From IMG/VR virus record IMGVR_UViG_3300021373_003070: a stretch of 64,000 nucleotides of DNA. One strand, given 5' to 3'. Below are positions 19,465 to 56,998 of this stretch, piece after piece; within the stretch, counting starts at the first letter, position 1; the number at the start of each line of letters is the position of its first letter. The notes under the pieces were generated by a model. That model was not told the DNA's origin, did not search any database, and was given only the letters and a program-made list of their open reading frames with translations. The position numbers and the translations under genes are program-made. This DNA is from a virus.

Positions 19465-19481
19465 CTATTCATGGATATGAT

Positions 19482-19978: not shown

Positions 19979-20004
19979 AGCCTTTTATTGTACGTAAACA
20001 CATT

Positions 20005-21964: not shown

Positions 21965-22341
21965 TAGTAGTTGTAAAAATGAAGAGCGGCGATTTTATTA
22001 TGGGCAATCTTACAATCACTCATGAATCGAGCATCGAACTAAAGGATGCACTGATCGTTGAAATTGGCAAGAATCCTGCCGGTATCACTGTATACTTCTA
22101 TAAGTATTGTCCATTTAATACCTCATTCGATATCTCTTTGCAGAAAACAGAAATATCTAATATATTTGATGATCCTATTCCATCGTTGTCAGATTATTAT
22201 AAAGCGCAATGCAAAATACTAAAGCGCACATATGATTTAAAGCTTGAACAGGATGAACAAGACGAAGAGGATGAGCTAGAGGATGATCCATCTTACGAAG
22301 CCTTTTTTGAAAAATTGAAGACAGACCCGGAGGTACACTAG
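21961..22341 (+). CDS. Conserved T4-like hypothetical (Sm-like) protein
   Basis: Typical position between uvsW and gp55. Confidence 0.6.
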   Translation: MIVVVKMKSGDFIMGNLTITHESSIELKDALIVEIGKNPAGITVYFYKYCPFNTSFDISLQKTEISNIFDDPIPSLSDYYKAQCKILKRTYDLKLEQDEQDEEDELEDDPSYEAFFEKLKTDPEVH

Positions 22342-22850: not shown

Positions 22851-23004
22851 AGCTTGGTTAGTATGGAAGTATGCCATCGGATCATTTTCTGATGACAAGA
22901 CTGAAAACTATGATGACATTGTGGCGATAATTAGGACACTGGTTGTGCTGGTTAACTTCGTCACATGTTTTTTTATTATGAGCAACGTGGTGCATAACTG
23001 GTGA
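22843..23004 (+). CDS. Small membrane protein (53 aa)
   Basis: WKYAIGSFSDDKT..YD..VAIIRT motif, familiar from marine T4-like phages; coupled overlaps. Confidence 0.7.
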   Translation: MSKAWLVWKYAIGSFSDDKTENYDDIVAIIRTLVVLVNFVTCFFIMSNVVHNW

Positions 23005-24056: not shown

Positions 24057-24489
24057 AGTCATAGCTACCGATGCTGTACCTCACGAATGTGATGGATGCA
24101 TAGGATGTTGTGATGGTACTTTATCACATCGCTATGTGACACAGTCCGGTAAACAATTATATTGTGATAATGATGCCGCGTGCGATTATTGTGGACCATC
24201 AGGTTGTCTAGGATATGACGATAGACCACAAGGTTGTGATGAGTTCCAATGTTACTGGAAACAAGATTCTGGTTTGCCAATGTGGTTGAACCCCAAAGAA
24301 TGTGGATTCATGATTTTACCTTATCCGAAAGACGGTGGCAATTACTTTACGATCAAAGAGATAAAATCATATGACTTGAATTGGTCTTCGTTGTTGTGGG
24401 CATTGGCTTGGGCTAATGAGACTCATAAAAATGTGTACACTATTTTGGCAAAACAAGGTACAATGTACTTTGAAAACGAACGCGAGTAA
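24046..24489 (+). CDS. CxxCxxCC (YkgJ-like) cysteine-cluster protein
   Basis: CDGCIGCC...C..C...C..Y..RP..C..F.C. Confidence 0.7.
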   Translation: MQNEVIATDAVPHECDGCIGCCDGTLSHRYVTQSGKQLYCDNDAACDYCGPSGCLGYDDRPQGCDEFQCYWKQDSGLPMWLNPKECGFMILPYPKDGGNYFTIKEIKSYDLNWSSLLWALAWANETHKNVYTILAKQGTMYFENERE

Positions 24490-24491
24490 GT

Positions 24492-26192
24492 ATGTTATAT
24501 TTTAAGAAGATTCGTTGGCAGAATTTTTTGTCAACTGGTAATCAATTTACAGAGATATTGCTTAACAAATCACAATCTACATTGATCGTAGGTGAGAATG
24601 GCGCCGGCAAATCAACAATGCTGGACGCTATTTTGTTTGCGTTATATGGTAAGCCGTATCGAAACATCAATAAGCCTCAGCTAGTCAACAGCATCAATAA
24701 CAAGCATGCACTTGTCGAAATAGAATTTAGTACAAAGGGCAAAGACTACTTAGTTCGCAGAGGTATCAAACCGGCAAAGTTTGAGATCTTCTGCGACGAT
24801 AAGCTTGTTGATCAGAATGCAAGTGTCAAAGAGTATCAAGATTATCTCGAGAAGACTGTCCTCAAACTCAATCATAAGTCATTCACTCAAATCGTTGTGA
24901 TTGGTTCGGCCAACTTCGTACCATTTATGCAGATGAAAGTATGGGAACGACGTGATGTGATCGAAGATCTTCTTGATATCGAGATCTTTACGAAGATGAA
25001 CAACGCATTACGCGACCGCATATCCAAAAACAAAGACGAAGTCATCGAAGCAAAGTATCATATCGATCTGCTCAATGAAAAGATAGAGCTTACACGTAAG
25101 CATATGAACGAACTAGCGTCTATCAAAAAGTCTGATAAAGAAGCAAAAGAAAAACAGATCAAAGAACACAAACAACAACTGTCTGAGCTCACAGAAAAAT
25201 ACGAAGAGGTCAATGGTCAGGTAAAAGAATTACACGAAAGTATTTCTGACTATCAAAAGCTAAAGGATAAGAAGTCGCAACTCAATGAGTTGAAATATAA
25301 GCTTGATCATAAAGTCAAGACATTACACGAAGAGATTGATTTCTTTGAACACAATGACAATTGTCCAGCTTGCACACAACCTATCGATTCACATGTAAAA
25401 CAATGTGCCGTTGATGACAAGAACAGTAAGCGTGTTGAGTTGCAAGAAGCAGTCACACAGATGGATGAACACTTTAGTGAGGTTGAGAATAGACTTGAGC
25501 AGGTCATGGTTGTACAAGAAAAGATTCAAAGTCTCAACTCATCTCTTCTTAGTCTAAATAATGATATGCTATATCATTCCAATACGATCAAGAAATTGTC
25601 AGTTGAAGAGAAGAAACCAGAAGTCAAAGAAAATACAGATGACATGGCAGATTTGAAGGCTAAGCTAACTGCCAGTCAAGCATCTCATGAGTTTCTATTA
25701 TTTCAAAAAGAAACATATGAAATGGCATCATCACTGCTCAAAGACGGTGGTATCAAAGCAAAGATCATCAAACAATATGTACCTATCATCAACAAATTGA
25801 TGAATAAGTATTTAGCTGCCATGGAATTTTTTGTGCAGTTTGAGTTAGATGAACAGTTTAATGAGAAAATCAAGTCGCGATTCCGTGATGAGTTTACGTA
25901 CGACTCTTTTAGTGAAGGCGAGAAGATGCGTATTGATTTATCATTATTGTTTACTTGGCGAGCTGTAGCCAAGTTGCGTAATTCTATTACGACAAACCTG
26001 TTGATTATGGATGAGGTGTTTGACAGCTCTCTTGATAACACGGGTACAGATGAATTTATGAAACTGATTACGCAGTTGACTAGCGACACCAATGTGTTCG
26101 TGATTAGCCATAAAGGTGATCAACTATTTGATAAGTTTCATAGTAATATTAAATTTGAAAAGGTTAAAAATTTCTCGCAGATTGCTGCATAG
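24492..26192 (+). CDS. gp46: Recombination ATPase subunit (Rad50/SbcC-like)
   Basis: GENGAGKST, CPAC Zn hook, FSEGEKMRID, MDEVFD. Confidence 0.97.
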   Translation: MLYFKKIRWQNFLSTGNQFTEILLNKSQSTLIVGENGAGKSTMLDAILFALYGKPYRNINKPQLVNSINNKHALVEIEFSTKGKDYLVRRGIKPAKFEIFCDDKLVDQNASVKEYQDYLEKTVLKLNHKSFTQIVVIGSANFVPFMQMKVWERRDVIEDLLDIEIFTKMNNALRDRISKNKDEVIEAKYHIDLLNEKIELTRKHMNELASIKKSDKEAKEKQIKEHKQQLSELTEKYEEVNGQVKELHESISDYQKLKDKKSQLNELKYKLDHKVKTLHEEIDFFEHNDNCPACTQPIDSHVKQCAVDDKNSKRVELQEAVTQMDEHFSEVENRLEQVMVVQEKIQSLNSSLLSLNNDMLYHSNTIKKLSVEEKKPEVKENTDDMADLKAKLTASQASHEFLLFQKETYEMASSLLKDGGIKAKIIKQYVPIINKLMNKYLAAMEFFVQFELDEQFNEKIKSRFRDEFTYDSFSEGEKMRIDLSLLFTWRAVAKLRNSITTNLLIMDEVFDSSLDNTGTDEFMKLITQLTSDTNVFVISHKGDQLFDKFHSNIKFEKVKNFSQIAA

Positions 26193-26200
26193 GAGTCATC

Positions 26201-26377
26201 ATGTATAAGCTATATACAAAACTAAAAGAAGATCAAGAGTGGATTGCTGTTCTTGATGTCAAGCTCAGTCGAGTAAATAAAGTAGATCGTATTTTTATGA
26301 ACCGTGAAGAGGCTGAGGCGTTCGTTAAGCAACAAAACATTCCTGATAACATGTACAAAATTGAAGAACAAGAGTAG
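26201..26377 (+). CDS. Small hypothetical protein (58 aa)
   Basis: AGGAG RBS; MYKLYTKLKEDQEW... Confidence 0.65.
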   Translation: MYKLYTKLKEDQEWIAVLDVKLSRVNKVDRIFMNREEAEAFVKQQNIPDNMYKIEEQE

Positions 26378-26404
26378 AATAGATACATCATTGAGGAGAA
26401 AATT

Positions 26405-26818
26405 ATGAGTAACGATTGGGCATCAGACATTCGATCTATGCATGACAAATATGGTGTACACGAATGGGTACAGGAAAATCCAGAAAAGCTACGTGAGTTC
26501 CTACAGTTCCGAATGAAGTTTATACAAGAGGAATTTAGCGAGACGCTCGAAGCAATCATCAATAATGATCCTGAAGAAATGGTCGACGGTCTTATTGATC
26601 TATGTGTTGTAGCTATCGGCACAATGGATGCATTTGGTATCGATGCTCATAAAGCGTGGAACGAGGTCTTCGCTGCCAACATGGCGAAAGAACGTGGTGT
26701 AAAAGAAACACGTCCTAATCCTCTCGGTCTACCAGATCTGATCAAGCCAGAAGGATGGCAAACACCATCACATGCCGGCAATCACGGCCTACTGGCTGAG
26801 ATGTCACGATCGGAATAA
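26405..26818 (+). CDS. All-alpha (MazG-like) nucleoside triphosphate pyrophosphohydrolase; candidate dCTPase
   Basis: EEFSE...EEMVDGLIDL..V acidic motif; V..ANM.K and DLIKPEGW..P. Confidence 0.75.
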   Translation: MSNDWASDIRSMHDKYGVHEWVQENPEKLREFLQFRMKFIQEEFSETLEAIINNDPEEMVDGLIDLCVVAIGTMDAFGIDAHKAWNEVFAANMAKERGVKETRPNPLGLPDLIKPEGWQTPSHAGNHGLLAEMSRSE

Positions 26819-26854
26819 CCGATTAATTTTGTGTTTTTTTGCTGAAAATAAGTG

Positions 26855-26883
26855 TGTACTTTTTCTTGATTATGCTGTAGAAT
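26855..26883 (+). promoter_or_regulatory. Early-type promoter TGTACT-N17-TAGAAT
   Basis: Recurrent motif with ATGCTG before the -10. Confidence 0.7.
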
Positions 26884-26914
26884 AGACTAGTCAAATGGAA
26901 AAAGGTACACACTT

Positions 26915-27541
26915 ATGGCCTATTATTACGGCTCACTCAGAGACTCTCTGATCACAGAATGCCAGAACCAAGGCATGTCTCCATCTCATATCGAAAAGTA
27001 TGCCAAGTACTACATGGCAAAGCAGAGAGCTGCTCGAGGTGGCGGCCGTTCAAAGACTGGATATCAGGACTCCGATAAGACAAAAGTCTATCGTTCAGAG
27101 TGGGCATTTCAGTCAAAGGTTGACATCCGTCAATTCAAAGATATCGACGAAGCAACACAAAGATTCAAGCAAATCAAGAAGTCAAAGCTGTGGAGTCAGA
27201 TTGGTAAGCAATGCTATCTGATGGACAATCGCCGCATGGGTCGTGCTACTGCAGGTCGTGCACACGTTGGTGGTAAGATCGAGCTAGGTACAACAGGCAT
27301 GGATGAGTATACACTTATCCACGAAATGGCACATCAGACACATAACTCAATGCACCACGGTGTACAATTTCGTATCCACTTGTTAAAGTTAGTATCTAGA
27401 TTTATGGGACGAGAAGCACATGACATTCTCAAAGCAGAATTCAAAGAACGTAAGCTTAAGCTATCAATGCCTAAGCCACGTTCACCGGCTAGCTGGTTCA
27501 AATCATATCAACACATGCAAAAAGTAAGAGGTGAAGCATGA
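26915..27541 (+). CDS. Zincin-like (HExxH) protein
   Basis: LIHEMAH...HG..F motif. Confidence 0.65.
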   Translation: MAYYYGSLRDSLITECQNQGMSPSHIEKYAKYYMAKQRAARGGGRSKTGYQDSDKTKVYRSEWAFQSKVDIRQFKDIDEATQRFKQIKKSKLWSQIGKQCYLMDNRRMGRATAGRAHVGGKIELGTTGMDEYTLIHEMAHQTHNSMHHGVQFRIHLLKLVSRFMGREAHDILKAEFKERKLKLSMPKPRSPASWFKSYQHMQKVRGEA

Positions 27542-27879
27542 AAGAATCACTTAAAGTTTTACAAGAATGTGCTGAGGTACAAATCAAAAAGTCTAATGAC
27601 TATCAAAATGATTACTCTCGCATTCGTCAAGCAGACTACTATCCTCGTGGTGTAGCTACTATCACAGATCTCATCTATGCTAAAGTTCTTCGTATGCAAT
27701 CAGTCATCGAAGCTAGCGAACGTGATCCAGAATATACACCAAACTTCGAATCAATCGAAGATTCTGCTAAAGATCTAATCAACTATGCATCATTCGTTGT
27801 TGCATACATGCGTGGCCAAATGGATGGCCAAGAAACAAACCGTGACTTCCTTAATCGGGTGATTGATGATTCAGAATAA
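27538..27879 (+). CDS. Nucleotide-modification-associated domain protein (DUF1599/Nmad1-like)
   Basis: KKSNDY...K..R...ESIEDS..DLINYA pattern; adjacent to gp42. Confidence 0.65.
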   Translation: MKESLKVLQECAEVQIKKSNDYQNDYSRIRQADYYPRGVATITDLIYAKVLRMQSVIEASERDPEYTPNFESIEDSAKDLINYASFVVAYMRGQMDGQETNRDFLNRVIDDSE

Positions 27880-28543
27880 AGTACATGATATCCGTTCTTA
27901 TTTCAAAGAAGCTTTACACAAAGAACAATTCACAATTGACAAGACTGGTCAAAAGACTATCGAATTAATTGGTGCATCGTTTATTGCAGACGAGCCATCT
28001 ATCTTTGGTAGACCGGTTCAAAAGTATATCGATGCCGAGATCAATTGGTATATTTCTCAATCTACTAACATTCACGATATCTATGATGAAGGTAGAGCAC
28101 CACCTGAAGCTTGGAAGTATTCGGCAAATGAACACGGTGAGATCAACTCAAACTATGGCCATCTTATTTACAGTGAAAAGTATGGTAATCAATACCATCG
28201 TGTAATGCAAGAACTTCTCGCTCATCCGGATGGCCGACGTGCAACAATGATTTATAATCGTCCATCTATATGGAATGAATACAACGAGAATGGTAAGTCA
28301 GACTTTATTTGTACCAATGCTGTAACTTACTATGTACGTAATGGTAAACTCCACTGTGTGGTTCAGATGCGCTCTAACGATGTGGTTTTCGGTTACAAGA
28401 ATGACTATGCTTGGCAGAAATATATACTAGATATGTTGGCTTATGATATTTCTAGTCATCACACACAAATATTTTCTGGTGATATTATGTGGCAGGTTCA
28501 AAACCTTCACGTATACGAACGACACTTTAAATTGGTGGAATAA
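27863..28543 (+). CDS. gp42: dCMP hydroxymethylase (thymidylate synthase fold)
   Basis: Collinear with T4 gp42 as recalled: DKTG.KTIE.IGASF.ADEP.IFG, GEINSNYG, SDF.CTN (catalytic Cys), MRSNDVVFG..NDYAWQ with the dCMP-specifying Asp, LHVY.RHF. Confidence 0.9.
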   Translation: MMIQNKVHDIRSYFKEALHKEQFTIDKTGQKTIELIGASFIADEPSIFGRPVQKYIDAEINWYISQSTNIHDIYDEGRAPPEAWKYSANEHGEINSNYGHLIYSEKYGNQYHRVMQELLAHPDGRRATMIYNRPSIWNEYNENGKSDFICTNAVTYYVRNGKLHCVVQMRSNDVVFGYKNDYAWQKYILDMLAYDISSHHTQIFSGDIMWQVQNLHVYERHFKLVE

Positions 28544-29044
28544 ATGTGGATAATGTCCTCTCTTAGAATGATGTTTGTAGGTGCGCTGGCTTCGGCTGGT
28601 GTGCTTGCATATTTTTATTATGTTAATACTCAAGCTGAGTTAGAGTTACTACGCACTGAGATTGAACTATACGAAGTAAAGTTTGCCACACAAACTGAAA
28701 CTATTGATGAGCTAAGAGATGAAATACAAGCTCAAACTGAAAGGCTAAATACTTTAGCCATGGCAAATCAAGAAGCTGAAGTCGAGTTGAACAGATATCT
28801 TGATATTTTTAGACGACACAATTTGCAAAGGTTAGCGGCAGCTAAACCGGACTGGGTGTCGAATATTGTTAATAATGGAACGAAAGATGTATTTGACAGC
28901 ATTGAAGAAGTTAGTCGTGTTATCGACTCTATTGATGGTGACGGGGTGCAGTTGGCTCCATCCGAAGACGGAGATACAGATACAGACGAAACAGGTGAGA
29001 GTGCCAATAGCACAGCCGACACTTCCACGGGAACTGGATCTTAA
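28544..29044 (+). CDS. Putative inner-membrane spanin (Rz-like)
   Basis: N-terminal TM plus long coiled coil; overlaps a lipoprotein gene. Confidence 0.65.
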   Translation: MWIMSSLRMMFVGALASAGVLAYFYYVNTQAELELLRTEIELYEVKFATQTETIDELRDEIQAQTERLNTLAMANQEAEVELNRYLDIFRRHNLQRLAAAKPDWVSNIVNNGTKDVFDSIEEVSRVIDSIDGDGVQLAPSEDGDTDTDETGESANSTADTSTGTGS

Positions 29045-29267
29045 AGAACCAAAGTTCTACGTAGTATCGGATAAAAATCTCGACGATTTTCTCGTAGAAA
29101 TTGAGAAGCGTGCTGGTGGAATTGTATTCGTCGCCATCACTGTTGATGACTACGAACTGATGTCATATAACATGCAAGAGATTAAGCGCTATGTACAACA
29201 GATGAAATCTGTAGTAGTATATTACTATGATATCGTCGAAGACAACAATGCGAAGGCTGAAAAGTGA
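28887..29267 (+). CDS. Putative outer-membrane spanin lipoprotein (Rz1-like)
   Basis: Lipobox VTG-C at residue ~21 followed by a Pro-rich segment; overlaps the 3' end of the i-spanin in another frame. Confidence 0.65.
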   Translation: MYLTALKKLVVLSTLLMVTGCSWLHPKTEIQIQTKQVRVPIAQPTLPRELDLKEPKFYVVSDKNLDDFLVEIEKRAGGIVFVAITVDDYELMSYNMQEIKRYVQQMKSVVVYYYDIVEDNNAKAEK

Positions 29268-29899
29268 GAGTTGCGTATTACGTCAATGGTAGTATACGTA
29301 AGGTAAATCAAAACAATTTGCCATACGATCCTATTGATGTGCATACAGATTTTGCCAATAAGATTGGTGCAGATCTCGGAATGTCAACATGGGAAGTAAG
29401 TAGTGATCCAAAATCAATATCGCTTCAAGAGCTCATGGAATTGCCATTTGAGAGAAGTAAACAGCCGCCGGGTTATTATCCGGATTTGTTCTGGCAACAT
29501 GTAAATTATTGTGAATGGGCGGCATGCAATTATGAAGTATATGACGTATTAGTCAGAGGTCGTTGGGATAATATTTACAATGAAGATAACATCGACCTGA
29601 TCAGTGAAAGCATTACGGCGTGTTATACTGATAGAATGGCGTTTGGATTTTGCAACAGTCGATATCGAGCATTAGATGAATCACTCAAAAATATCAATGA
29701 TCATGTGATTATTCATCCAGCTAAATCGTTTGATCCGGATTTTACCTCAAATTTCTTTCGTACATTCACCGGCGTATGGGAAGAAATGGGACCAGTAAGA
29801 CAAAGTCAGCATGCTGCATGTAAAGCTGAACATATATGGTGGTGGCTACTATGTGGTCGAACAAATTTACCTTACAAGAATATTAGATTATCTGAATGA
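29264..29899 (+). CDS. Hypothetical glycosyltransferase-like protein (YD..VRxRxD family)
   Basis: YDVLVRGRWD and NDHVII; shares motifs with the 58142 and 60887 ORFs. Confidence 0.5.
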   Translation: MRVAYYVNGSIRKVNQNNLPYDPIDVHTDFANKIGADLGMSTWEVSSDPKSISLQELMELPFERSKQPPGYYPDLFWQHVNYCEWAACNYEVYDVLVRGRWDNIYNEDNIDLISESITACYTDRMAFGFCNSRYRALDESLKNINDHVIIHPAKSFDPDFTSNFFRTFTGVWEEMGPVRQSQHAACKAEHIWWWLLCGRTNLPYKNIRLSE

Positions 29900-31065
29900 T
29901 TGAAACTACAAAATATTATGATGAATTCATAAGGTACTTCAACTTAGCCTATAAACAGCAAGAGCTATGTAATGTATCTGATAAAGAACCTTATGGCATG
30001 GTCGCACATAAGGATTCGAATCTCGGTGATGATCTCATGGAGAATGTTGAATTATATGATGTAGTCGAACGCAAATATGCAGGCTTTTCTCAGATCATAA
30101 ATGATTGTTTTTATGGATGGACAGAAGATCATCCATATTGGAAAAAGATGCAGGCGGGCTTGTGTACCCGTCAACGAGAGACCGTCGCCAAAGACTGGAC
30201 CGGTAAACAAGACGTATTCTCTCTTCCTGAATGGCTCTATGTTTTTATCCTTCATAGAGTCACCGGTTCAGCAATTAACTATGCCCAGAAACCATCTGGG
30301 TATTTTAACACCATCCTCTTCAATCTCCATCAGTGTGATACAATAGAAGAGATGGTGCAGCTGGCGAAGCACTACCCGGTACCCTTCTATACCTCAGTCG
30401 GTTACCAGTTCCCAGCGTTTCCAAAACCAGTCGGCGACTATAAGAAAGGCGGTGATTATTACCTCGGTGAATTTGCCCCTCGATTAGCTCGCGATCTCGC
30501 GGACCATTTGACGATGGGTCCTCGCAAGGACCTTCGCGAGATTGGTGAGTTTATGCTGAAGTGGAATGAAGACAATGGTCTTCGACGCTATCAGTTTCAA
30601 TACGCAGCTGTAGTCGCTGACGTCGCCGACTGGTTTCCTCAATACGTTAACCGTGAAAGCATGTTCTATTACGGTACAAATGCAGTAGAATGTATCTCTT
30701 ACTTGGCTAAACCTGTCAAGAAGATGAAAAAAGAGTTGTTCCTTGATGCCGTCATGACGAAAATATATGATGATACAGGAAGTGTACCATATAATGCTGA
30801 AGATGTATGTTGCGACTTCATTCGTTATGTTGAAAATTATGTTCGCCCTGGTCCGGAATATAATCATTTAGATTATGATAATCTGTGGTCGTCATGCGGC
30901 ATCAAGGATCACCCTTATGGAAGACAGAAATATATGTTGGATATGGGGTTGATAGAAACTTTTAATGGCATGAAAAATCATCCATCTGATGATGCAATTC
31001 TAAAAAATAATGAAATGACTGTTGAAGAGTACCAACGTAATGTCGCTAACTTACTTTCTAGGTGA
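29896..31065 (+). CDS. aGPT-PPlase1/5-HMUDK-like helical (HhH-glycosylase-fold) DNA-modification protein, copy 1
   Basis: F.YA.VVAD.......G.NA...I..L and a C-terminal N.EDVCCDF.RY resemble the family's E..LC.F.KY motif. Confidence 0.55.
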   Translation: MIETTKYYDEFIRYFNLAYKQQELCNVSDKEPYGMVAHKDSNLGDDLMENVELYDVVERKYAGFSQIINDCFYGWTEDHPYWKKMQAGLCTRQRETVAKDWTGKQDVFSLPEWLYVFILHRVTGSAINYAQKPSGYFNTILFNLHQCDTIEEMVQLAKHYPVPFYTSVGYQFPAFPKPVGDYKKGGDYYLGEFAPRLARDLADHLTMGPRKDLREIGEFMLKWNEDNGLRRYQFQYAAVVADVADWFPQYVNRESMFYYGTNAVECISYLAKPVKKMKKELFLDAVMTKIYDDTGSVPYNAEDVCCDFIRYVENYVRPGPEYNHLDYDNLWSSCGIKDHPYGRQKYMLDMGLIETFNGMKNHPSDDAILKNNEMTVEEYQRNVANLLSR

Positions 31066-32032
31066 ACACGAAAATGATATCCAATATCAGAACATTGCTG
31101 AGGTGGATTACAAAAACGGCAAACCTACGTCGTCGTGGTTAAAAGGTTGGTGTCAAGAAGCTCGAACTGAAAAGTTTTTCGAGTTCTGTCGTGGCTACGA
31201 TGCACGTCAAGACTTTTTACTAAAGAACAACTATCAACAATTCTCACATCGATTGCACTGGCACGAATGTCCTTTTGTTGACGAGATGGCACAAGAGAAA
31301 GACAGAGTCAAGGTACTCGAAGCATGCGTTCTCTTCTCATTTAGCAACGAGCATTGGCAAACATTCAGAGCATGGCGTGATCATGGTCAAGACGGTATGA
31401 GAGTAAGATTTACAAGCTATCGTCATGCTCGTAGCGATCTGTTTCAGATCTACTATCCAAAAGATACGAAGGTCAAAGACTGGCTCATCGAAGCGCCAGC
31501 TCGTATTGCACTTGAGCTCGATTCATTATTCGATGGCATGCGTAGACCGTTCACGATGATGGAATTTGCCAAAAAAATGAACATCATCATGGTCCGCGAT
31601 TTTGGTTTTCGTAATGCCATGTACCCGTCAAAGAATGCAGCGCGACATGTAGCGATGAGCCATCCTGAGTGGGTTGATCCTGACTCGTTCTTACATGGTG
31701 GTACAGGATACTTCGATGGTTTGTCGCAGATCTTTGACTGTCCACATCTTATGTCAAGATCAAAGTATGAGATTGATGAGGATGGTGAATACGTACCGAT
31801 GAATAAATGGGCAGAGATGCAGATCCAACACATGGACTATCTCAAAAATCATCCTAGCAATCCTATTCATACACATCAGTATCTCAACTTAGAAGACAAG
31901 CTATGTATGCATTACAAGTTTATGTCAATGAAGCTAGGTTCTAAAAAGCAAACAAAGATGATACCATATAACTGGGTGTATCCAGAGAATTGGTCTCTTA
32001 AAACAAATAGGTATGATCGTGGCACACAATAA
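31040..32032 (+). CDS. aGPT-PPlase1/5-HMUDK-like protein, copy 2
   Basis: D.LL..NY..F..R, P.WVDPDS...GTG...GL..IF, NLEDKLC...K; paralogous to the upstream ORF. Confidence 0.5.
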   Translation: MSLTYFLGEHENDIQYQNIAEVDYKNGKPTSSWLKGWCQEARTEKFFEFCRGYDARQDFLLKNNYQQFSHRLHWHECPFVDEMAQEKDRVKVLEACVLFSFSNEHWQTFRAWRDHGQDGMRVRFTSYRHARSDLFQIYYPKDTKVKDWLIEAPARIALELDSLFDGMRRPFTMMEFAKKMNIIMVRDFGFRNAMYPSKNAARHVAMSHPEWVDPDSFLHGGTGYFDGLSQIFDCPHLMSRSKYEIDEDGEYVPMNKWAEMQIQHMDYLKNHPSNPIHTHQYLNLEDKLCMHYKFMSMKLGSKKQTKMIPYNWVYPENWSLKTNRYDRGTQ

Positions 32033-32903
32033 TCATGTAATCGATGGCGTCAACAAAGACGTAGGAGTTTTTGGCTATGAAGCAGCAAAAGAATACTACT
32101 TATCTCTCACTGAAGGATGGGAACCATTCAATCCAGATCCCGTTGTCCGTGAACATGAAGGAGTACGGGTCGTTAGAGATGACCTTATCATGGGGACAAA
32201 ATCGCGAGCTGGCGATCTCCTTGCCTTCAAAGCCCCTGCCGAAACGTTGGTATACTGTCAGCCAAGGACTGGACTCGCTGGGGTATCGTTATTAGATGTA
32301 GCTAAACATCACAATCGTAAGGTTGTCTTGTTTATGCCATCATCAAAGAGAGTATCACATCATCAGGCATGTTGTATAGAACGTGGAGCAGAAGTGCATT
32401 TCCATCGTATTGCAGCGATGCCAAATCTTAACAAAAAGGCAAAAGAATATGCAGAAAAACATGGATACTTTTTCATCCCTCTTGGTCTTAGACACGAGTA
32501 CGCTACCGCCGCAATTGTACACGCAGCTAGTAAAATACCTGAGCCAGATGAAGTGTACGTTGCTACTTCGACTGGAGTTCTCAATCGCGCTCTTCAAATT
32601 GCATGGCCAAATGCTCGTATCAATGGTATTGCCGTCGCTCGTAACATGAAGGCCGGCGAGCTAGGTCGATCTACCATTACATCAGAACCTTTGCCATTCA
32701 TAAAAGCAGAGAAGAAAGAAAATCTACCACCGTTCCCGTCCATCGACACATATGATGGTAAGGTGTGGAAATACATTCCAAAAAATAGTGGTAAAAATAT
32801 ACTTTTTTGGAATGTAGGTACTGAACCTAGTTTACAAGATGATACAATCTATGATAGAATAGATTCATATCGCGATTGGGAGAAAAATAATGCATCAGCG
32901 TAG
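32013..32903 (+). CDS. Fold-type II PLP-dependent enzyme (ACC deaminase/D-Cys desulfhydrase-like)
   Basis: VRDDL..GTKSR (Schiff-base Lys), YFFIPLG, V..STGV phosphate loop, D.YDGK, LFWNVG. Confidence 0.8.
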   Translation: MIVAHNNHVIDGVNKDVGVFGYEAAKEYYLSLTEGWEPFNPDPVVREHEGVRVVRDDLIMGTKSRAGDLLAFKAPAETLVYCQPRTGLAGVSLLDVAKHHNRKVVLFMPSSKRVSHHQACCIERGAEVHFHRIAAMPNLNKKAKEYAEKHGYFFIPLGLRHEYATAAIVHAASKIPEPDEVYVATSTGVLNRALQIAWPNARINGIAVARNMKAGELGRSTITSEPLPFIKAEKKENLPPFPSIDTYDGKVWKYIPKNSGKNILFWNVGTEPSLQDDTIYDRIDSYRDWEKNNASA

Positions 32904-33993
32904 TGGATTAGTAGCAACACCTTTTATTACAATCTCACGCCAATTAAGTAGCCATAGAGCTGCGCAAGGTGTTATATATGCCGATCAATTACAAGAAGCT
33001 AACGTTGGCCAGATTAAAGTCAACATGACAGGGGACCAATACGAAAGTGAATTCAGTAATTATGATGACCTGTATGTATATCATGGCAATGATTGGAGTG
33101 GCAATATTAATCTTTTTGGCGGTCTCAATAATTTCCCTTATATTGAAAACTTTGTCAATTTCTCTAGATTTACTGGTAAAGTGTATTCCCTTGTTATTGA
33201 TATGCCTGATTATTATGGCCTTATGAAAGAGAAGTTCGACAAGGCTAAAGAAAAAGGCAAAGAATGGAATCCTTTATGGGATGGCATCGATTGGGATAAT
33301 CTCAAACGAATGTGTGAAACTGCCGAAACGATTGTGCCTAACGAACTACACAAATTTACAAAAATGTCTGTCGGTGATAGTCATGCAATATGCATGTATC
33401 GCCCGGGCTGGAACAATCTATCCGTACCATTCAAGACATTACACGGCGCATTGAAAGAAGGACTCGAATCATTTCTCGAAGATAGAACATATACACATCT
33501 AGAATTTTACTTTGGCAACATCGATGTAAGACATCACCTTTGTCGTCAAGATGATCCTGTAGCTGCCACACGACAACTCGTTGCAGAGTATATGAAGCAG
33601 GCTCATGCCATTGCACAGAAGTATAATTGCAAAATTCGTATCTACGAACTCCTGCCAATCGAAGCAGAAACACGATCTATTCCAAAAACTGGTTGGTATA
33701 AAGGTACGCCGTTCTATGGCTCTCGTCAAGAGAGAAATGATATTCGCAAGTTGTTCAAAGAAGAAGTAAGAAAGAGATGCACAGACGAGGTGCAACTTTA
33801 CGAGTGGATTGGTGAGATGGTTAACTCGAGAGGTGAACTCGATTTTGAGTTTATGGAACGACCTCAGTCAGTACATTTATCTCGTCGTTGGTATCCACAT
33901 TGGCAAGGCTATCAGTGGAGTCACGCTCCGTATGTTGAATATATACCTACAGCAGAGCGAGAAACAACTACACTTGAGGATTTTTTTAGCTAA
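32890..33993 (+). CDS. Two-domain protein: BGT-N-like domain fused to an SGNH-like domain
   Basis: N-terminal NYDDLYV...INLFGG...GKVYSLVID; C-terminal GDSH, FGNID, SVHL blocks. Confidence 0.5.
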   Translation: MHQRSGLVATPFITISRQLSSHRAAQGVIYADQLQEANVGQIKVNMTGDQYESEFSNYDDLYVYHGNDWSGNINLFGGLNNFPYIENFVNFSRFTGKVYSLVIDMPDYYGLMKEKFDKAKEKGKEWNPLWDGIDWDNLKRMCETAETIVPNELHKFTKMSVGDSHAICMYRPGWNNLSVPFKTLHGALKEGLESFLEDRTYTHLEFYFGNIDVRHHLCRQDDPVAATRQLVAEYMKQAHAIAQKYNCKIRIYELLPIEAETRSIPKTGWYKGTPFYGSRQERNDIRKLFKEEVRKRCTDEVQLYEWIGEMVNSRGELDFEFMERPQSVHLSRRWYPHWQGYQWSHAPYVEYIPTAERETTTLEDFFS

Positions 33994-35201
33994 TGAAGCA
34001 TGCGACTATTATTCCATTAATTGGAGGTGAAGTGCTCGCCTCCGAAAAGGTGTTCGGCCATAAGCCGGATTATATCCTATCATATAATGCGTTTCAAGCA
34101 AACGAAGAGCACCTACTAAATTATTGGAATCATGAGGTACCGTACTACGTACTCGACGAAGGGGATCGCCACCCCCATCCCGTAGACGTAGTGTCCAGTG
34201 TATGTCCTTGTGCTGGCTTGTCATTGTTCAGCACGCGTTATGGAGAGGACAACAAAAACAATCGCTGGATGATTGAAACGGCTAAGTACGTTCTTGGCGA
34301 GATCAAGCCTCTTGTATTTTGGGGAGAGAATGCCCCAACCTTCACCGGTAAAATCGGTGCACCAATTCGAAATCAACTTATCGAAGTTGGTAAAGAACAC
34401 GGTTATGTTATGTCAATGTTTAAGACAAAAAGTCTTTTGCACGGCATACCACAAACACGCGAACGTACATTCTACTTCTTCTGGAAAGGAGACAAGGTAC
34501 CAGTGTTTGACTACTATCGTAGAGACATGACATCAATCGAAGATCTTATACTGAGTGTCGATCGTGATCCTAAGGATCCGATGTCTGAAGTCATTAATAG
34601 AACCAAACCAACAGACAATCCTTTCTACAAATATTTACTTGAGGAGATTCACGGTGGAATATCTCATCGCGATCATTTTGATTCCATTGATGTGCGGGAC
34701 CCTTCAACTCCTAATTATCTTGATGTATATAGCCTCATTGAAAGCCATAAACACGACTACGTCCGTGTTGGAAAATGGCTGGAAAATAAAGGCTATGACC
34801 GCGAATCGAAGCGAGCTTATCGAATGTATGATAAGTTGGAGTCAGGTGGTAATATTATGCGCCGCGGCACTATTCTGCCTAAAGGTCATATCGGATCATT
34901 TGTAGGTCACTATCCTCAGATGCTAACACATCCACATGAAGATCGATACATTACATTTCGAGAAGCAATGACAATCATGGGTCTGCCTGAAGATTATCAG
35001 CTTCTCAATCCTCGTGGTAGCTTCAATCATATATGTCAGAATGTACCTTATCAGACAGCTGTAGATATGGCTACCGAAGTAAAGGCAGCAATCGAAGGTC
35101 AACGACCATGGGTTGATGCTAACGTTTCTTTGCAGCAAAACACATCTAAAAAGTTTGAAATTTTAGACAAAGAAGAATCTACACTTGAATCATTTTTCTA
35201 G
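33993..35201 (+). CDS. DNA cytosine-C5 methyltransferase-like protein with atypical motif I
   Basis: PCAGLS (IV), GENAP (VI), PQTRERTF (VIII), R.IT.REA..IMGLP (IX), QNVP (X); motif I reads IPLIGG instead of FxGxGG. Confidence 0.8.
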   Translation: MKHATIIPLIGGEVLASEKVFGHKPDYILSYNAFQANEEHLLNYWNHEVPYYVLDEGDRHPHPVDVVSSVCPCAGLSLFSTRYGEDNKNNRWMIETAKYVLGEIKPLVFWGENAPTFTGKIGAPIRNQLIEVGKEHGYVMSMFKTKSLLHGIPQTRERTFYFFWKGDKVPVFDYYRRDMTSIEDLILSVDRDPKDPMSEVINRTKPTDNPFYKYLLEEIHGGISHRDHFDSIDVRDPSTPNYLDVYSLIESHKHDYVRVGKWLENKGYDRESKRAYRMYDKLESGGNIMRRGTILPKGHIGSFVGHYPQMLTHPHEDRYITFREAMTIMGLPEDYQLLNPRGSFNHICQNVPYQTAVDMATEVKAAIEGQRPWVDANVSLQQNTSKKFEILDKEESTLESFF

Positions 35202-35230
35202 TGTACATTCTTGTCCACATGCTGTACAAT
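35202..35230 (+). promoter_or_regulatory. Early-type promoter TGTACA-N17-TACAAT
   Basis: Recurrent motif. Confidence 0.7.
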
Positions 35231-35259
35231 TTATAAATCTTATCGAATATAGGTAAACT

Positions 35260-36237
35260 ATGGAAATCAATGTACCAGTCGAAGAACTTCGCCAATATAA
35301 GGTGATGATTGGCACACCAATGTACGGGGCTCAATGCTCAGGTATGTACACGCGATCGATGGCAGAGTTAACAACTACGATGCAGCGATATGGTGTTCCG
35401 ATGCAATTTTATTTCTTGTTCAATGAATCTCTTATTACTCGAGCACGTAACTATTGTGTTGATGAGTTTATGCGATCTGATTGCACGCATCTTATGTTCA
35501 TCGATTCTGACATCTCATTTAAAGCACAAGATGTACTATCGATGCTAGCTATTATGCATCAACGACAAGAAATGGATGTGTGTTGTGCACCATATCCGAA
35601 GAAGACAATTGCATGGGAAAAAATTACTCAGGCTGTCAAGAGTGGTGTCGCTGACGAAGATCCAAATGTCCTCGAAAATTTTGTTGGTGATTATGTCTTC
35701 AATCCAATCAGACCCAAAGAAAAGGGTGAACACTTTATCAAGTTATCAGAACCAACCGAAGTAGCAGAAGGTGGTACTGGTTTTATGATGATCAAGCGAG
35801 AAACGTTTGACAAGTATAAAGAAACATATCCACAATTTATGTATCGACCAGATCATGTTCGAACTGCACATTTTGATGGTTCAACAGAAATCATGGCATA
35901 TTTCGATGCATTGATTGATGATAAATCACAGAATCTAATACCTGAAATAAAAGCATTCTTTAAGAAGAATCCGAATGCTAAGAACAATGATGTCGTCAGG
36001 TTCCTTGAAGATAAGACAAAGGGTATCGATCAGAAGCAATACTCGAATCGATACCTGTCAGAAGATTACATGTTTTGTTATAATGTAAGACGTGCAGGAA
36101 TGAAAGTATTCATGTGTCCTTGGATGGAATTGAAACATATGGGTGCATACGTATTCGGTGGTTCTCTTGCAGCTCTCGCATCAGTTGGTGCAGCGGCTAC
36201 AGCGGATCCTGAAAAACTTGGAAAGAAAAAAGGATAA
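35260..36237 (+). CDS. GT-A fold glycosyltransferase
   Basis: TPMYG, ESLITRARN, LMFIDSD (DxD), GTGFMMI, YLSEDY.FC. Confidence 0.8.
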   Translation: MEINVPVEELRQYKVMIGTPMYGAQCSGMYTRSMAELTTTMQRYGVPMQFYFLFNESLITRARNYCVDEFMRSDCTHLMFIDSDISFKAQDVLSMLAIMHQRQEMDVCCAPYPKKTIAWEKITQAVKSGVADEDPNVLENFVGDYVFNPIRPKEKGEHFIKLSEPTEVAEGGTGFMMIKRETFDKYKETYPQFMYRPDHVRTAHFDGSTEIMAYFDALIDDKSQNLIPEIKAFFKKNPNAKNNDVVRFLEDKTKGIDQKQYSNRYLSEDYMFCYNVRRAGMKVFMCPWMELKHMGAYVFGGSLAALASVGAAATADPEKLGKKKG

Positions 36238-36245
36238 ATTATATT

Positions 36246-36899
36246 ATGAAACTCAACCAACGCTCGGTACAAATTCTCAAGAATTTTTCTACCATTAATC
36301 CGTCAATTCAGTTTCGAGAAGGTAATGCTCTCAAGACTATTTCGCCAAACAAAACCATTATGGCGAAAGCAGTTCTCGAAGATCAGATTCCACAAGACTT
36401 TGCAATCTATGACTTGTCGCGATTCTTAGGAGTGTCATCTTTGTTCGAAGATCCTGATTATGTACTCGCTGATCGCAATGTTGTGATTGCGGCACCGGGA
36501 CGACAGGTAAGTTATACTTTCGCTGATCCTAATACGATCGTGTCAGCTCCAAACAAAGACATTGATATTGGTGATGTCGATGTGCAGTTCGAACTGAAGC
36601 AAGAAGTATTTGCCGAAGTAATGAAAGCACTCGGTGTGATGAGCTTTCCTGAAGTTGTAGTTGCAGGCGAAAATGGTCGAATTGTTTTACGCGCAACTGA
36701 TACGAAGAATCCATCAGCAGATAAATATGACATTGAAGTTGGTGAAACAGATCTTGAATTCACCTCTGTCTTCAAATCCGAGAATCTCAAAATCTTATCT
36801 GGCAACTATGTTGTTGGTATCTCATCGAAAGGTATCTCACACTTCCGCGGTGATGATGTAGAATATTGGATCTCGATCGAATCGAACTCTGCTTTTTAA
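36246..36899 (+). CDS. gp45: Sliding clamp
   Basis: ILKNFSTINPSI, FAIYDLSRFL, ENLKI..G.Y. Confidence 0.95.
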   Translation: MKLNQRSVQILKNFSTINPSIQFREGNALKTISPNKTIMAKAVLEDQIPQDFAIYDLSRFLGVSSLFEDPDYVLADRNVVIAAPGRQVSYTFADPNTIVSAPNKDIDIGDVDVQFELKQEVFAEVMKALGVMSFPEVVVAGENGRIVLRATDTKNPSADKYDIEVGETDLEFTSVFKSENLKILSGNYVVGISSKGISHFRGDDVEYWISIESNSAF

Positions 36900-36901
36900 T
36901 A

Positions 36902-36919
36902 TAGGGGCGTAAGCCCCTA
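36902..36919 (+). terminator. GC hairpin after gp45, probable terminator
   Basis: TAGGGGC-GTAA-GCCCCTA; weak U-tract. Confidence 0.55.
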
Positions 36920-36930
36920 AATTATTTTGA

Positions 36931-54445: not shown

Positions 54446-56998
54446 ATGACTAAATTTTATACTAATATCGATCAGCACGGTTCGCAGATACTCGTACGTG
54501 GCTATAATGAAGATGGCACACCTTTTCAACATAAAGAGAGATACGAACCTTATTTGTTTATGCGATCTCAGGTTGAGACCGGTTACACAGATATTTATGG
54601 TAATCATGTCAAACGCATGGACTTTCCTAACATCGGCGAAGCCAAGCAGTTTCGCAAGAAATACGAAGACGTTGAAGGTGTAGACATCTACGGTCTTGAA
54701 CGATATAAGTGTGTCTATATTTATGACAACTTTCGAAATCAAGTACCTGATACATCACGTATCAACATTGTCAACATAGATATCGAGGTTGCATCCGATG
54801 ATGGTTTTCCAGAACCTGAAGATGCCGACAAAGAAGTAACAGCCATTGGCTTACGAGATCGTACTAAAACAGTTGTGCTTGGTTGTGGTGAATTTAAACA
54901 TGACGATCCTAATACCTACTACGTAAAGTGTAAGAACGAGATTGAGCTACTCGATAAGTTCTTGAACATATGGCAGCATATGAATCCTGACGTAGTCACA
55001 GGTTGGAACACAGAATTCTTTGATATTCCATATCTTGTCCATCGCATTGCAAAGTGTGGTGCACTTGGCGAAGAAGCACTTAAAAGATTTTCTCCATGGA
55101 ATCTGCCACTACGTAAAGGTAGTGTGTTTCGGCCTGGCAGCGACAAAGCTTCAACGACATATCGCATCATCGGTGTAGCAAGTCTTGATTATCTGTCAAT
55201 CTACAAAAAGTTTAGATTGCAACCGCGTGAATCATACAAGCTCGATTTCATTGCCGAGACAGAACTTGGTACCAAAAAGATTGACTATAGCGAGTATGGC
55301 AATCTACACGAGTTGTACAAAAACAACTATCAAAAGTTTATCGAATACAACATTCGAGATATTGATCTGATCTTTGATCTCGAAGAAAAGCTAGGTTTCA
55401 TCGAACAAGTATTTACTGTCGCATATGATGCTGGCGTCAACTATGAAGACACGCTCGGTTCGGTAGGCATATGGGATGTGATTATTCACAACTATCTCAT
55501 GGACCAAAACATTGCGGTGTCAGACAAAGTCAACGCCATATCAGATAGACAGATCGAAGGTGGTTACGTCAAAGAACCAATCGTTGGCATGCACAAGTGG
55601 GTGATGTCATTTGACCTCAACTCGCTGTATCCTCACTTAATTCAACAATACAACATATCACCTGATACAGGTCTCAATAAGTTTGACGACCTCTTTCATA
55701 TTACTTCGCGTGCATCAGTCGACAATATCTTATCAGAAGAAATTGACTTTAGCGAATTAAAATCTTACAACGTAACCATGACACCGAATGGCAAGATCTA
55801 TCGACGTGATCGTCAAGGCTTCTTACCTGCATTGATGAAGAAGATGTATGATGATCGTGTATTGTACAAGAAGAAGATGTTGGAATGCAAACAAGAAGCA
55901 ATCAAGAATCCAAGCCGACAACTTGAGATTGACATCTCTCGCTATCACAACTTACAACACGCCAAAAAGATTCAGCTAAACTCAGCTTATGGTGCACTTG
56001 CCAACAAATACTTCAGATGGTTCGATAACGAGAATGCCGAGGCTATCACCATGGCTGGTCAGTTGTCTATTCGTTGGATCGAAAAGAAGATCAACATATG
56101 GTTGAATGACATACTCAAAACCAAAGGTCGTGACTACGTCATAGCGATCGATACCGATTCAGTATATGTGTCATTCGATAAGATGATCGAACTTACCAAT
56201 CCAAAGAATCCTGTTGAATTTCTTGACAAGGTGGCACAGCAACAAGTCGAACCATTCATCGATAAGTCTTATCGTGAGCTAGCCGATTATCTCAATGCAT
56301 ATGATCAGAAGATGATTATGAAACGAGAAAACATCGCTGATAAGGCAATCTGGACTGCCAAGAAGCGATACATCATGAACGTATGGGACTCTGAAGGTGT
56401 ACGATACGAAAAGCCAGATCTCAAGATGATGGGTATCGAGGCCATTCGATCAAGTACACCAGCGGTATGTCGTGATTACATTAAGAATACGTTGCAGCTT
56501 ATCATGTCAACCAGTGAAGCTGATGTGCAAAAATATATTGCTCACATTCGCGAAGAGTTCCGCACATTACCATTCGAAAAAGTTGCATTCCCTCGATCAT
56601 GTAACTTCGTAAAGTGGCAAACAAACTCACATACAGGTCAGCGATATCCATCTACATATGCTGATGATAAGACAATCTACAAGAAAGCAACACCTATTCA
56701 AGTCAAAGGTGCTCTACTATACAACTGGTACTTACATAAATATAACTTGACAAAGAAGTATGAACTCATAAAATCAGGCGAGAAAATTAAGTTTTGTTAT
56801 CTACGAAAACCAAACTCATTTCGAGATTCGGTTGTTTCGTGTCCTGATATTTTGCCATCGGAGTTTGGCTTGGAACAGTATATCGATTACGATACACAAT
56901 TCGTAAAAGGTTATCTCGATCCAATTGAAATCATACTACATGCAATCGGTTGGAAGTCTGAAAAGATTTCTACATTGGAGGACTTTTTCAGTGACTAA
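54446..56998 (+). CDS. gp43: Family B DNA polymerase
   Basis: DIEV (exo I), SFDLNSLYP, KIQLNSAYG, IDTDS, KKRY; uninterrupted. Confidence 0.98.
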   Translation: MTKFYTNIDQHGSQILVRGYNEDGTPFQHKERYEPYLFMRSQVETGYTDIYGNHVKRMDFPNIGEAKQFRKKYEDVEGVDIYGLERYKCVYIYDNFRNQVPDTSRINIVNIDIEVASDDGFPEPEDADKEVTAIGLRDRTKTVVLGCGEFKHDDPNTYYVKCKNEIELLDKFLNIWQHMNPDVVTGWNTEFFDIPYLVHRIAKCGALGEEALKRFSPWNLPLRKGSVFRPGSDKASTTYRIIGVASLDYLSIYKKFRLQPRESYKLDFIAETELGTKKIDYSEYGNLHELYKNNYQKFIEYNIRDIDLIFDLEEKLGFIEQVFTVAYDAGVNYEDTLGSVGIWDVIIHNYLMDQNIAVSDKVNAISDRQIEGGYVKEPIVGMHKWVMSFDLNSLYPHLIQQYNISPDTGLNKFDDLFHITSRASVDNILSEEIDFSELKSYNVTMTPNGKIYRRDRQGFLPALMKKMYDDRVLYKKKMLECKQEAIKNPSRQLEIDISRYHNLQHAKKIQLNSAYGALANKYFRWFDNENAEAITMAGQLSIRWIEKKINIWLNDILKTKGRDYVIAIDTDSVYVSFDKMIELTNPKNPVEFLDKVAQQQVEPFIDKSYRELADYLNAYDQKMIMKRENIADKAIWTAKKRYIMNVWDSEGVRYEKPDLKMMGIEAIRSSTPAVCRDYIKNTLQLIMSTSEADVQKYIAHIREEFRTLPFEKVAFPRSCNFVKWQTNSHTGQRYPSTYADDKTIYKKATPIQVKGALLYNWYLHKYNLTKKYELIKSGEKIKFCYLRKPNSFRDSVVSCPDILPSEFGLEQYIDYDTQFVKGYLDPIEIILHAIGWKSEKISTLEDFFSD

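Follow-up and report, generated by a model that had tools for sequence, protein, structure and literature searches.

The C5-cytosine DNA methyltransferases, to which M.HaeIII and M.HhaI (PF00145) belong, have several described homologues in phages. One of these is CmoX, the DNA cytosine C5-carboxymethyltransferase of Synechococcus phage S-B43 (PDB 8YF3), which the accessible part of its description presents as a phage C5-methyltransferase homologue with a changed cofactor that feeds a hypermodification pathway (PMC12783734). Others are paired with TET enzymes; the available sections of a study of these systems place phage-specific methyltransferase clades in cytosine hypermodification clusters together with glycosyltransferases and report no detectable methyltransferase activity for some TET-associated clades (PMC8256090). 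In addition, the accessible text of a further report states that the adduct between the catalytic Cys and C6 makes the hydroxymethyl group of 5-hydroxymethylcytosine (5hmC or hmC) exchangeable or removable in vitro, independently of S-adenosylmethionine (SAM) (PMC11347137). Here, we describe a methyltransferase-like gene at positions 33993..35201 of a 64,000-nucleotide stretch of viral DNA (IMG/VR virus record IMGVR_UViG_3300021373_003070), referred to as the window. Its 402-aa product belongs to a phage-specific offshoot of the C5-cytosine DNA methyltransferases, located in an hmC modification island of marine T4-like phages. With a rough probability of 45%, we predict that it is a replisome-coupled enzyme, which applies Cys-C6 covalent catalysis to hmC or to stray C in nascent phage DNA and has a non-canonical cofactor site. 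A literature search (subscription-only papers and supplements lay outside its scope) turned up neither this clade nor a motif I of the PLIGG type, and no report linking a methyltransferase homologue to a dCMP hydroxymethylase. The features of the gene are as follows.

33993..35201, + strand: C5-cytosine methyltransferase-fold gene of the PLIGG clade, 402 aa (open reading frame (ORF); PF00145 at E 1.2e-15; AlphaFold2 mean predicted local distance difference test (pLDDT) score 95.6)
34008..34031, + strand: motif I variant I-I-P-L-I-G-G-E, residues 6-13, where FxGxGG is expected
34080..34112, + strand: residues 30-40, S-Y-N-A-F-Q-A-N-E-E-H, with Ser-aromatic at the canonical motif II Glu site, then Asn37-Asp/Glu38
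34200..34223, + strand: motif IV, V70-C-P-C-A-G-L-S77, with catalytic Cys73, aligned to the PC motif of solved methyltransferases
34323..34337, + strand: motif VI, G111-E-N-A-P115
34452..34466, + strand: motif VIII, Q154-T-R-E-R158
34944..35048, + strand: motif IX, R318...P332, and motif X, Q349-N-V-P352, aligned to M.HaeIII and to the canonical phage enzyme
35175..35198, + strand: C-terminal tail E-S-T-L-E-S-F-F, a putative gp45 sliding-clamp binding motif

The start codon overlaps the stop of the gene before it by one base (TAATG). A preliminary description of this DNA had reported motifs IV, VI, VIII, IX and X as intact and motif I as IIPLIGG, and each of these was confirmed in the translation. 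Thus, the protein resembles M.HaeIII and M.HhaI in its two-domain fold, in the Pro-Cys, Glu-Asn and Gln-x-Arg-x-Arg motifs and in motifs IX and X, but it differs from them in having PLIGG in place of FxGxGG, Ser-aromatic in place of the motif II Glu and a tail like that of a DNA polymerase. The clade also differs in being phage-only and linked to hmC genes, and in that family profiles miss residues 1-60. The PF00145 match covers only residues 63-339 (profile positions 61-297), and the best sequence relative of solved structure, a prophage cytosine methyltransferase, aligns over residues 60-165 and 292-337.

An AlphaFold2 model built on 90 family sequences was superimposed by VIA-align on M.HaeIII (1DCT; Z 27.4, root-mean-square deviation 2.9 A over 279 residues, model residues 1-367 on chain residues 1-324) and on M.HhaI (Z 25.6, model residues 1-370 on chain residues 12-325), and Foldseek also placed it among the C5-methyltransferases. 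In the model, the protein has kept both the two-domain Rossmann-like catalytic fold and the target-recognition domain of the superfamily. Residues 1-60 gave no alignment to canonical enzymes with Pfam, with the family profile searched against solved structures or with hhalign, whose alignment to the canonical Streptococcus phage phiD12 enzyme (FSGVGG, ANEFD) begins at residue 61. Since the structural superposition starts at model residue 1, I7-P8-L9-I10-G11-G12 would occupy the Phe-x-Gly-x-Gly-Gly loop, a placement that follows from the alignment ranges, assuming no gap in the first dozen residues, and not from a residue-level alignment. Leu9 would then stand for the first glycine of motif I and Ile7 for its aromatic residue. 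Similarly, because strand 2 of the model (residues 28-30) ends at residue 30 and the next helix (residues 32-44) starts at residue 32, Tyr31, directly after Ser30, would be found at the canonical ribose-binding Glu position, and Asn37-Asp/Glu38 sits inside that helix. CmoX is also among the structural (Z 23.2) and profile (6.1e-14) matches of the protein. According to the accessible part of its description, CmoX keeps the adenine/ribose contacts Phe25, Glu47 and Asp69 and gains Arg350 and SPPC (PMC12783734). The window protein is the opposite case, as its N-terminal site is altered, while Asn350 and VCPC are kept.

The altered N-terminal half is a property of the whole clade. A search with the 402-aa protein returned 2324 homologues at E <= 1e-5 among 3923 candidates, while in a 50%-identity library the cluster representatives numbered 820 at E <= 0.001 and 239 at <= 1e-30, so that the likeness goes far beyond chance. 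For residue counts, we used an alignment of 90 sequences, in which the window protein and 7 close relatives were joined by 82 full-length representatives, the most distant at 27% identity, with the fragments and long fusions among 150 listed representatives omitted. The catalytic residues that define the superfamily (P72-C73, E112-N113-A114 and Q154/R156/R158) are kept in 82 to 90 of the 90 sequences: C73 in 89 and P72 in 82 for motif IV, E112 in 90 and N113 in 88 for motif VI, and R156 and R158 in 90 and Q154 in 88 for motif VIII. The Phe-x-Gly-x-Gly-Gly motif that marks the SAM-dependent family is instead I-P-L-I-G-G, with P8 in 90 sequences, L9 in 89, G11 in 90 and G12 in 88; position 7 is I in 48, V in 34 and never aromatic. 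Around strand 2, S30 is found in 80 sequences, Y/F/W at position 31 in 85, F34 in 85, N37 in 85 and H40 in 64. Similarly, the 234 family ORFs in the loci that we fetched comprise 227 with PLIGG, 5 with PL[LVA]GG and 2 that are cut at the locus end. The change in motif I is not decay, because P8, L9, G11 and G12 stay fixed while the family diverges to about 30% identity. By these residue counts, the cofactor half is as conserved as the catalytic centre, toward another consensus, and is a selected feature. A FastTree tree of the family was midpoint-rooted and used to choose subgroups only. Among the library representatives, P0212 (598 aa) has a CXXC zinc finger (PF02008, 6.6e-7) at its C-terminus, a domain typical of eukaryotic CpG readers, which hints at possible members outside phages. 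Long extensions without annotation, of up to 1462 aa, are fused to other family members.

These patterns bear directly upon the best placed of the rival explanations, namely that the protein is an ordinary SAM-dependent C5-methyltransferase with an unusual motif I, which rides the clamp and methylates defined sites or cytosines that escape hmC. It has all of the catalytic motifs, the motif X Asn350 in 87/90 sequences, an acidic residue at position 38 in 87/90 and Asp55 in 64/90, and its superposition on M.HaeIII and M.HhaI takes in the entire N-terminal Rossmann half, beginning at residue 1. Furthermore, for some members the Pfam alignment begins at profile position 10, and gp301 of Bacillus phage G (L235 355-1635) has FIFGG, NCPCSGLS, ENAP and QGVP together with an acidic residue after strand 2, so that this protein may bridge the canonical enzymes and the PLIGG clade. 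However, the first motif I Gly is Leu in 89/90 sequences, the preceding aromatic residue is never present, and three profile methods miss residues 1-60. Together with the genomic evidence described below, this leads us to consider an ordinary methylase unlikely, though still a serious contender.

The window is a T4-like myovirus segment, as judged from PHROG and Pfam scans. Its structural genes include sheath, tube, portal, prohead protease, scaffold and major capsid protein, and its replication and expression genes include UvsY, a UvsW-like helicase, gp55, gp46/47, gp45, gp44/62, RegA, gp43 and UvsX. A megablast search of positions 31000-36300 against a phage collection returned no match, which identifies no close cultured relative. 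Of the named phages that carry the protein, the closest are those of the S-TIM5 cyanophage group (31% identity) and Pseudoalteromonas phage XG4 (29%). Three genes upstream of the methyltransferase-like gene concern the synthesis of hmC.

26405..26818, + strand: MazG-type nucleotide pyrophosphohydrolase, candidate dCTPase (phrog_671 at 9.8e-24; PF01503 at 4.5e-11)
27538..27879, + strand: DUF1599-type small pyrophosphatase-like protein (PF07659 at 5.5e-5, under the curated cut-off)
27863..28543, + strand: dCMP hydroxymethylase, homologue of T4 gp42 (E 8.9e-69 to PDB 1B49/1B5E)

The gp42 homologue is ~52% identical to the T-even enzymes and has Asp at the ThyA-equivalent positions 143, 169 and 177. 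In the available part of a recent study, Asp177 sets dCMP specificity, an acidic residue at 143 accompanies hydroxymethylation, and Asn169 is the mark of the recently discovered 5-hydroxy-dCMP synthases (PMC13326640). As Asp169 is kept, the gene reads as a 5-hydroxymethyl-dCMP (5hmdCMP) synthase; a 5-hydroxy-dCMP synthase of the RB69 type was considered and ruled out by the same residue. The phage therefore very probably makes hmC, and this part of the preliminary description, which had predicted an hmC-containing genome, is supported by the gp42 homologue and its three Asp residues. In Xp12 and PaMx74-type phages, DUF1599 homologues bear the annotation nucleotide pyrophosphohydrolase, and a preprint describes these phages as replacing C entirely by 5-methylcytosine (5mC). 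The pyrophosphatase genes beside the synthase make full replacement of C by hmC likely, as against the partial substitution that the preliminary description had named as an alternative. This also argues against an ordinary methylase, as the hydroxymethylase and pyrophosphatases should leave little unmodified C for it. The pathway differs from that of the TET systems, where hmC is made after replication by a methyltransferase plus TET, whereas here the hydroxymethylase acts at the nucleotide level. No TET/JBP gene was found in the window, where two 2-oxoglutarate oxygenases match PF13759 only, or among the recurrent neighbour families, and a TET-coupled pathway was rejected on this basis.

We were also interested in whether the association with hmC genes extends to other members of the family. 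The 231 loci compared were all fetched through this protein by three scans, and they are related by descent and were counted with redundancy kept. They consist of 80 loci from close viral contigs (51-87% identity), 76 and 73 from two distant sub-alignments, and two named phages; single-protein locus searches with two distant members returned no loci. An ORF of the thymidylate synthase family lies in the flank of 129/231 loci, and 128 of the 129 have D143/C146/D169/D177, one (S-TIM5) has C/C/D/D, and none has the dUMP-type Asn177. When only loci of at least 15 kb are counted, 70/90 have the synthase (26/26, 17/34, 25/28 and 2/2 by set). In cyanophage S-TIM5 (L001), the gene at 5766-6602 is annotated 'ThyA' but has Asp at 177 and Cys at 143, and a PLVGG-type methyltransferase-like gene lies 2.4 kb away; judging from these residues, the product is probably dCMP-specific (a 5mdCMP or 5hmdCMP synthase) and not a thymidylate synthase. 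To count the remaining neighbours, all locus ORFs were clustered and the representatives annotated, which gave the following recurrent families.

T4 DNA alpha-glucosyltransferase (PF11440, 6.6e-80), directly upstream with a median gap of -3 bases: 84 loci
dCMP deaminase: 112 loci
DUF1599 protein: 88 loci
MazG: 64 loci
NDP-sugar epimerase: 76 loci
Glycosyltransferase-like protein of the type found in the window: 77 loci
ThyX: 30 loci

Smaller recurrent families include a TET-associated-type glycosyltransferase (TAGT; PF20691, 2.7e-19), a 5-hydroxymethyldeoxyuridine (5-hmdU) DNA kinase helical-domain protein (PF18723, 9.4e-12), UDP-glucose dehydrogenase and a cytidylyltransferase. The gene thus stays constant, whereas the hmC synthesis and tailoring islands around it vary. 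In a set of related contigs (L110, 1-9984), the gene is directly preceded by a pathway resembling those for bacillosamine or legionaminic acid (dehydratase, hexapeptide acetyltransferase, DegT aminotransferase, GT2, HAD, nucleotidyltransferase and a DAHP/KDO8P-synthase-like protein), a hint of unusual sugars on the DNA. A scan of one genome per species across 185,579 prokaryote species, which rests on two peptide patterns and is not exhaustive, found 15 loci, all of them on contigs of metagenome-assembled genomes. Thirteen of these carry T4-like genes such as UvsX, gp41, gp45, gp44, polymerase, the synthase (10 loci) or alpha-glucosyltransferase; the other two are a 1.2-kb fragment (L248) and a locus with no match to a named phage family (L250). 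None of the 15 loci shows a restriction-modification setting, and all contigs on which we found the family are T4-like phage contigs. The hmC-island setting fits a role tied to hmC rather than that of a stray restriction-evasion methylase. This is a further difficulty for the ordinary methylase, since the target-recognition region is conserved, the clade is inherited with hmC genes to 30% identity, unlike restriction-evasion methylases, and it never stands in a bacterial restriction-modification setting in the loci examined.

The second distinctive feature of the protein is its C-terminus, which can be compared to that of the polymerase encoded in the window, where the clamp gene is also found.

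36246..36899, + strand: gp45 sliding clamp (phrog_223 at 1.2e-70; PF09116 at 4.9e-15)
54446..56998, + strand: gp43 DNA polymerase, C-terminus S-T-L-E-D-F-F-S-D (phrog_262 at 4.6e-300)

The polymerase ends in STLEDFFSD, the methyltransferase-like protein in ESTLESFF and the SGNH protein encoded directly upstream in TTTLEDFFS. Such a polymerase-like tail on a methyltransferase-like protein is a new observation. We scored the tail as hydrophobic-x-x-aromatic-hydrophobic no more than 3 residues from the end, using only ORFs whose C-terminus lies inside the locus. The motif was present in 162/231 methyltransferase-like proteins, 24/27 SGNH proteins, 40/84 alpha-glucosyltransferases, 33/56 polymerases and 12/13 kinase-like proteins, versus 0/106 UvsX, 0/65 gp45, 0/72 glycosyltransferase-like proteins, 9/128 synthases and 14/111 deaminases among the controls. 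Among 40 distinct pairs of methyltransferase-like and polymerase tails from loci holding both genes, both tails had the motif in 23, neither in 13, only the polymerase in 4 and only the methyltransferase-like protein in 0; kinship was ignored in this count, and the pairs are not phylogenetically independent. Lineages with a different polymerase end also differ in the methyltransferase-like tail. From its likeness to the tail of the cognate polymerase, we suggest that the protein is tethered to the gp45 sliding clamp. A tail of the form (S/T)-L-E-(D/E/S)-F-F is common to the polymerase, alpha-glucosyltransferase homologues, the TAGT-type glycosyltransferase, the 5-hmdU-kinase-like protein, the SGNH protein and the methyltransferase-like protein. 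By analogy with the polymerase, the shared tail suggests a clamp 'tool-belt' for DNA modification.

The C-terminus of T4 and RB69 gp43 binds the clamp, and eukaryotic DNMT1 is tethered by a PIP-box. What the window protein has in common with these is a short C-terminal hydrophobic-x-x-aromatic-aromatic tail of the kind also carried by the polymerase; clamp binding is here a prediction. A predicted complex of gp45 with residues 361-402 scored 0.36, compared to 0.00 for the best of 3 controls, which speaks weakly for the interaction. At least 82% of contacts agreed between runs, and the pLDDT of the partner was at least 39. The mark for a pass was reached by 116/157 solved complexes and 2/215 mismatched pairs, with scores of <= 0.60 accounting for only 18/157 of the former and for both of the mismatches. 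A clamp-peptide complex of a related phage has been solved, and the predicted pass may reflect only likeness to it.

The proposed mechanism combines these features. The tail would dock the enzyme on the gp45 clamp, where it would act on freshly replicated phage DNA beside the glucosyltransferases. This substrate would carry hmC at nearly every cytosine position, and we therefore infer that the enzyme does not carry out plain SAM-dependent methyl transfer to C5. Cys73 would attack C6 of a flipped-out 5hmC to form an adduct that renders the 5-CH2OH group labile, and the enzyme would then replace or remove this group at its target sites; alternatively, stray unmodified C would be converted. The rebuilt pocket would hold a partner other than a canonically posed SAM. 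The 5hmC side reactions seen in vitro are those of normal enzymes deprived of cofactor, whereas here the chemistry is proposed as a selected natural function. It is possible, though less likely than not, that the protein is also the first natural enzyme selected for this 'atypical' reaction, i.e. a SAM-independent, clamp-tethered enzyme that swaps or strips the hydroxymethyl group to create a novel hypermodification or site-specific unmodified marks.

Several observations weigh against the replisome-coupled reading. The docking of the tail on gp45 is suggested by analogy and by a weak prediction. The idea that T4 alpha-glucosyltransferase binds gp45 is an old one. In the accessible part of a 2025 preprint, experiments with C-terminally tagged enzymes found no interaction between the two (10.64898/2025.12.06.692756). 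In the N-terminal half, Asn37-Asp/Glu38 resembles a motif II Asn-Glu displaced by 9 residues, so SAM binding may survive, and the conservation of Asn350 and Asp55 also leaves it possible; the equivalent of Asn350 adjoins the transferred group in solved enzymes, according to the available text of one report (PMC12783734). The window island and related islands hold candidate kinase- or transferase-like genes (31022..32032 and the 5-hmdU DNA kinase-like genes), with which nucleophile addition could run by a known route without the methyltransferase-like enzyme. The link to hmC itself was drawn from loci that share descent and were all retrieved with the one protein, and 17/34 long loci of one set have no synthase within 10 kb. 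When five whole records without a nearby synthase were searched, three fragments (7-24% complete) had none and a 26%-complete record had an ordinary ThyA with Asn177, while a 94%-complete record of 364 kb had a DCDD-type gene ~100 kb off.

Of the remaining rivals, the next to be considered is a DNA-level cytosine hydroxymethylase, acting as a modification proofreader that would place a one-carbon unit from methylene-tetrahydrofolate or formaldehyde onto rare C and thereby yield hmC after replication. C5-methyltransferases do couple aldehydes to C in vitro, and an altered cofactor half with an intact catalytic core, a tail directed to the fork and tight linkage to the hmC pathway would all suit such an enzyme. 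However, no folate-binding feature was identified in the protein, the activity would be redundant with the nucleotide-level pathway, and it has no natural precedent, which makes this explanation quite improbable. Somewhat less probable again is an action upon host cytosine DNA, e.g. as a covalent roadblock or slow deaminase for host shut-off. Host DNA is the only abundant C-containing DNA in an infection by an hmC phage and SAM-free methyltransferases deaminate C slowly, but a tail of the polymerase type suggests that the protein sits on the phage clamp at phage forks, and its gene shares an operon with tailoring enzymes for phage DNA. Least probable by far is an alkyltransferase using carboxy-SAM in the manner of CmoX or another SAM analogue, for which CmoX supplies both a cyanophage precedent and a structural and profile match, since the protein has Asn350 (87/90) instead of the diagnostic Arg350 and VCPC instead of SPPC, the C5 of hmC is already substituted, and no CmoA-like gene was found in PHROG scans of the 68 window ORFs or Pfam scans of 27, the window being part of a genome. 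The preliminary description had proposed an enzyme neofunctionalised around hmC; this gains from the fixed change in motif I, the phage-only clade and the hmC gene islands, whereas the variant with a SAM analogue fails in its CmoX-type form because of Asn350 and VCPC.

Carriers of the gene are common, as the family has > 2000 members in public metagenomes and belongs to a very abundant group of marine phages. If the replisome-coupled enzyme acts on hmC, it would provide a new enzymatic route to rewrite a modified base directly in DNA; a laboratory side reaction would become biology, and a natural catalyst could outperform engineered ones. Methyltransferase-directed derivatisation of 5hmC already serves epigenome mapping. 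The finding would be categorically new only if SAM-independent hmC chemistry were demonstrated. Should the protein be a plain methylase, it would have a functional motif I without the first glycine, and hmC phages would keep 5mC as a second mark. Whatever the chemistry of the enzyme, the shared tail bears upon the disputed interaction of T4 alpha-glucosyltransferase with gp45.

The immediate surroundings of the gene include the following further members of the island.

29896..31065, + strand: unknown 389-aa protein in the variable part of the island, present in 11 loci
31022..32032, + strand: candidate amino acid:DNA transferase or DNA kinase-helical-domain-like protein, a lead only, from the ESM Atlas
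32013..32903, + strand: pyridoxal phosphate (PLP)-enzyme-like protein of a threonine dehydratase-like PHROG (phrog_7093 at 6.4e-35; no Pfam match)
32890..33993, + strand: SGNH/GDSL-hydrolase-fold protein, translationally coupled to the methyltransferase-like gene (GDSH motif, Foldseek)
35260..36237, + strand: glycosyltransferase-like protein (phrog_1574 at 2e-61; phrog_34859 at 3.3e-5; PF13506 at 0.0011, under the cut-off)

Neither Pfam (E up to 1) nor PHROG gave a match for 29896..31065. The product of 31022..32032 likewise had no Pfam match at E up to 1, and its ESM Atlas feature score of 0.96 is to clusters in which 10-36% of members carry PF18723 or PF18724. The SGNH protein has an invariant G162-D-S-H165, Foldseek matches to PAF acetylhydrolase (3.2e-5) and also to sialate O-acetylesterases, and an N-terminal domain with a faint likeness to T4 beta-glucosyltransferase; it may act on modified DNA by adding acyl groups or taking them off. 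Sequence searches of three neighbour proteins against solved structures returned no match. The glycosyltransferase-like gene is the downstream neighbour in 67 of the 82 loci of the first set. The block at 29896-33993, between the hydroxymethylase and the methyltransferase-like gene, was present in only 9-11 of the fetched loci. It resembles a thymidine-hypermodification toolkit placed in an hmC phage, which suggests an amino-acid-type hypermodification of cytosine.

Elsewhere in the window, the T4 late-promoter consensus TATAAATA occurs 12 times (657-53213) compared to 4.05 expected, a number reached in 1/100 shuffles. Eleven of the sites lie on the + strand, most of them directly preceding structural genes. 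The replication/modification block at 17999-36930 has none, which fits early or middle expression of the island. The tail-tube family phrog_45 is matched by two separate ORFs, at 3435-3947 (4.7e-45) and 19482-19964 (6e-33). Lastly, a GT25 glycosyltransferase, a Methyltransf_24 protein, a HAD-nucleotidyltransferase fusion and an FkbM methyltransferase are encoded within 51720-53223, 59523-60890 and 62190-62849, and these genes may make a sugar donor for DNA glycosylation.

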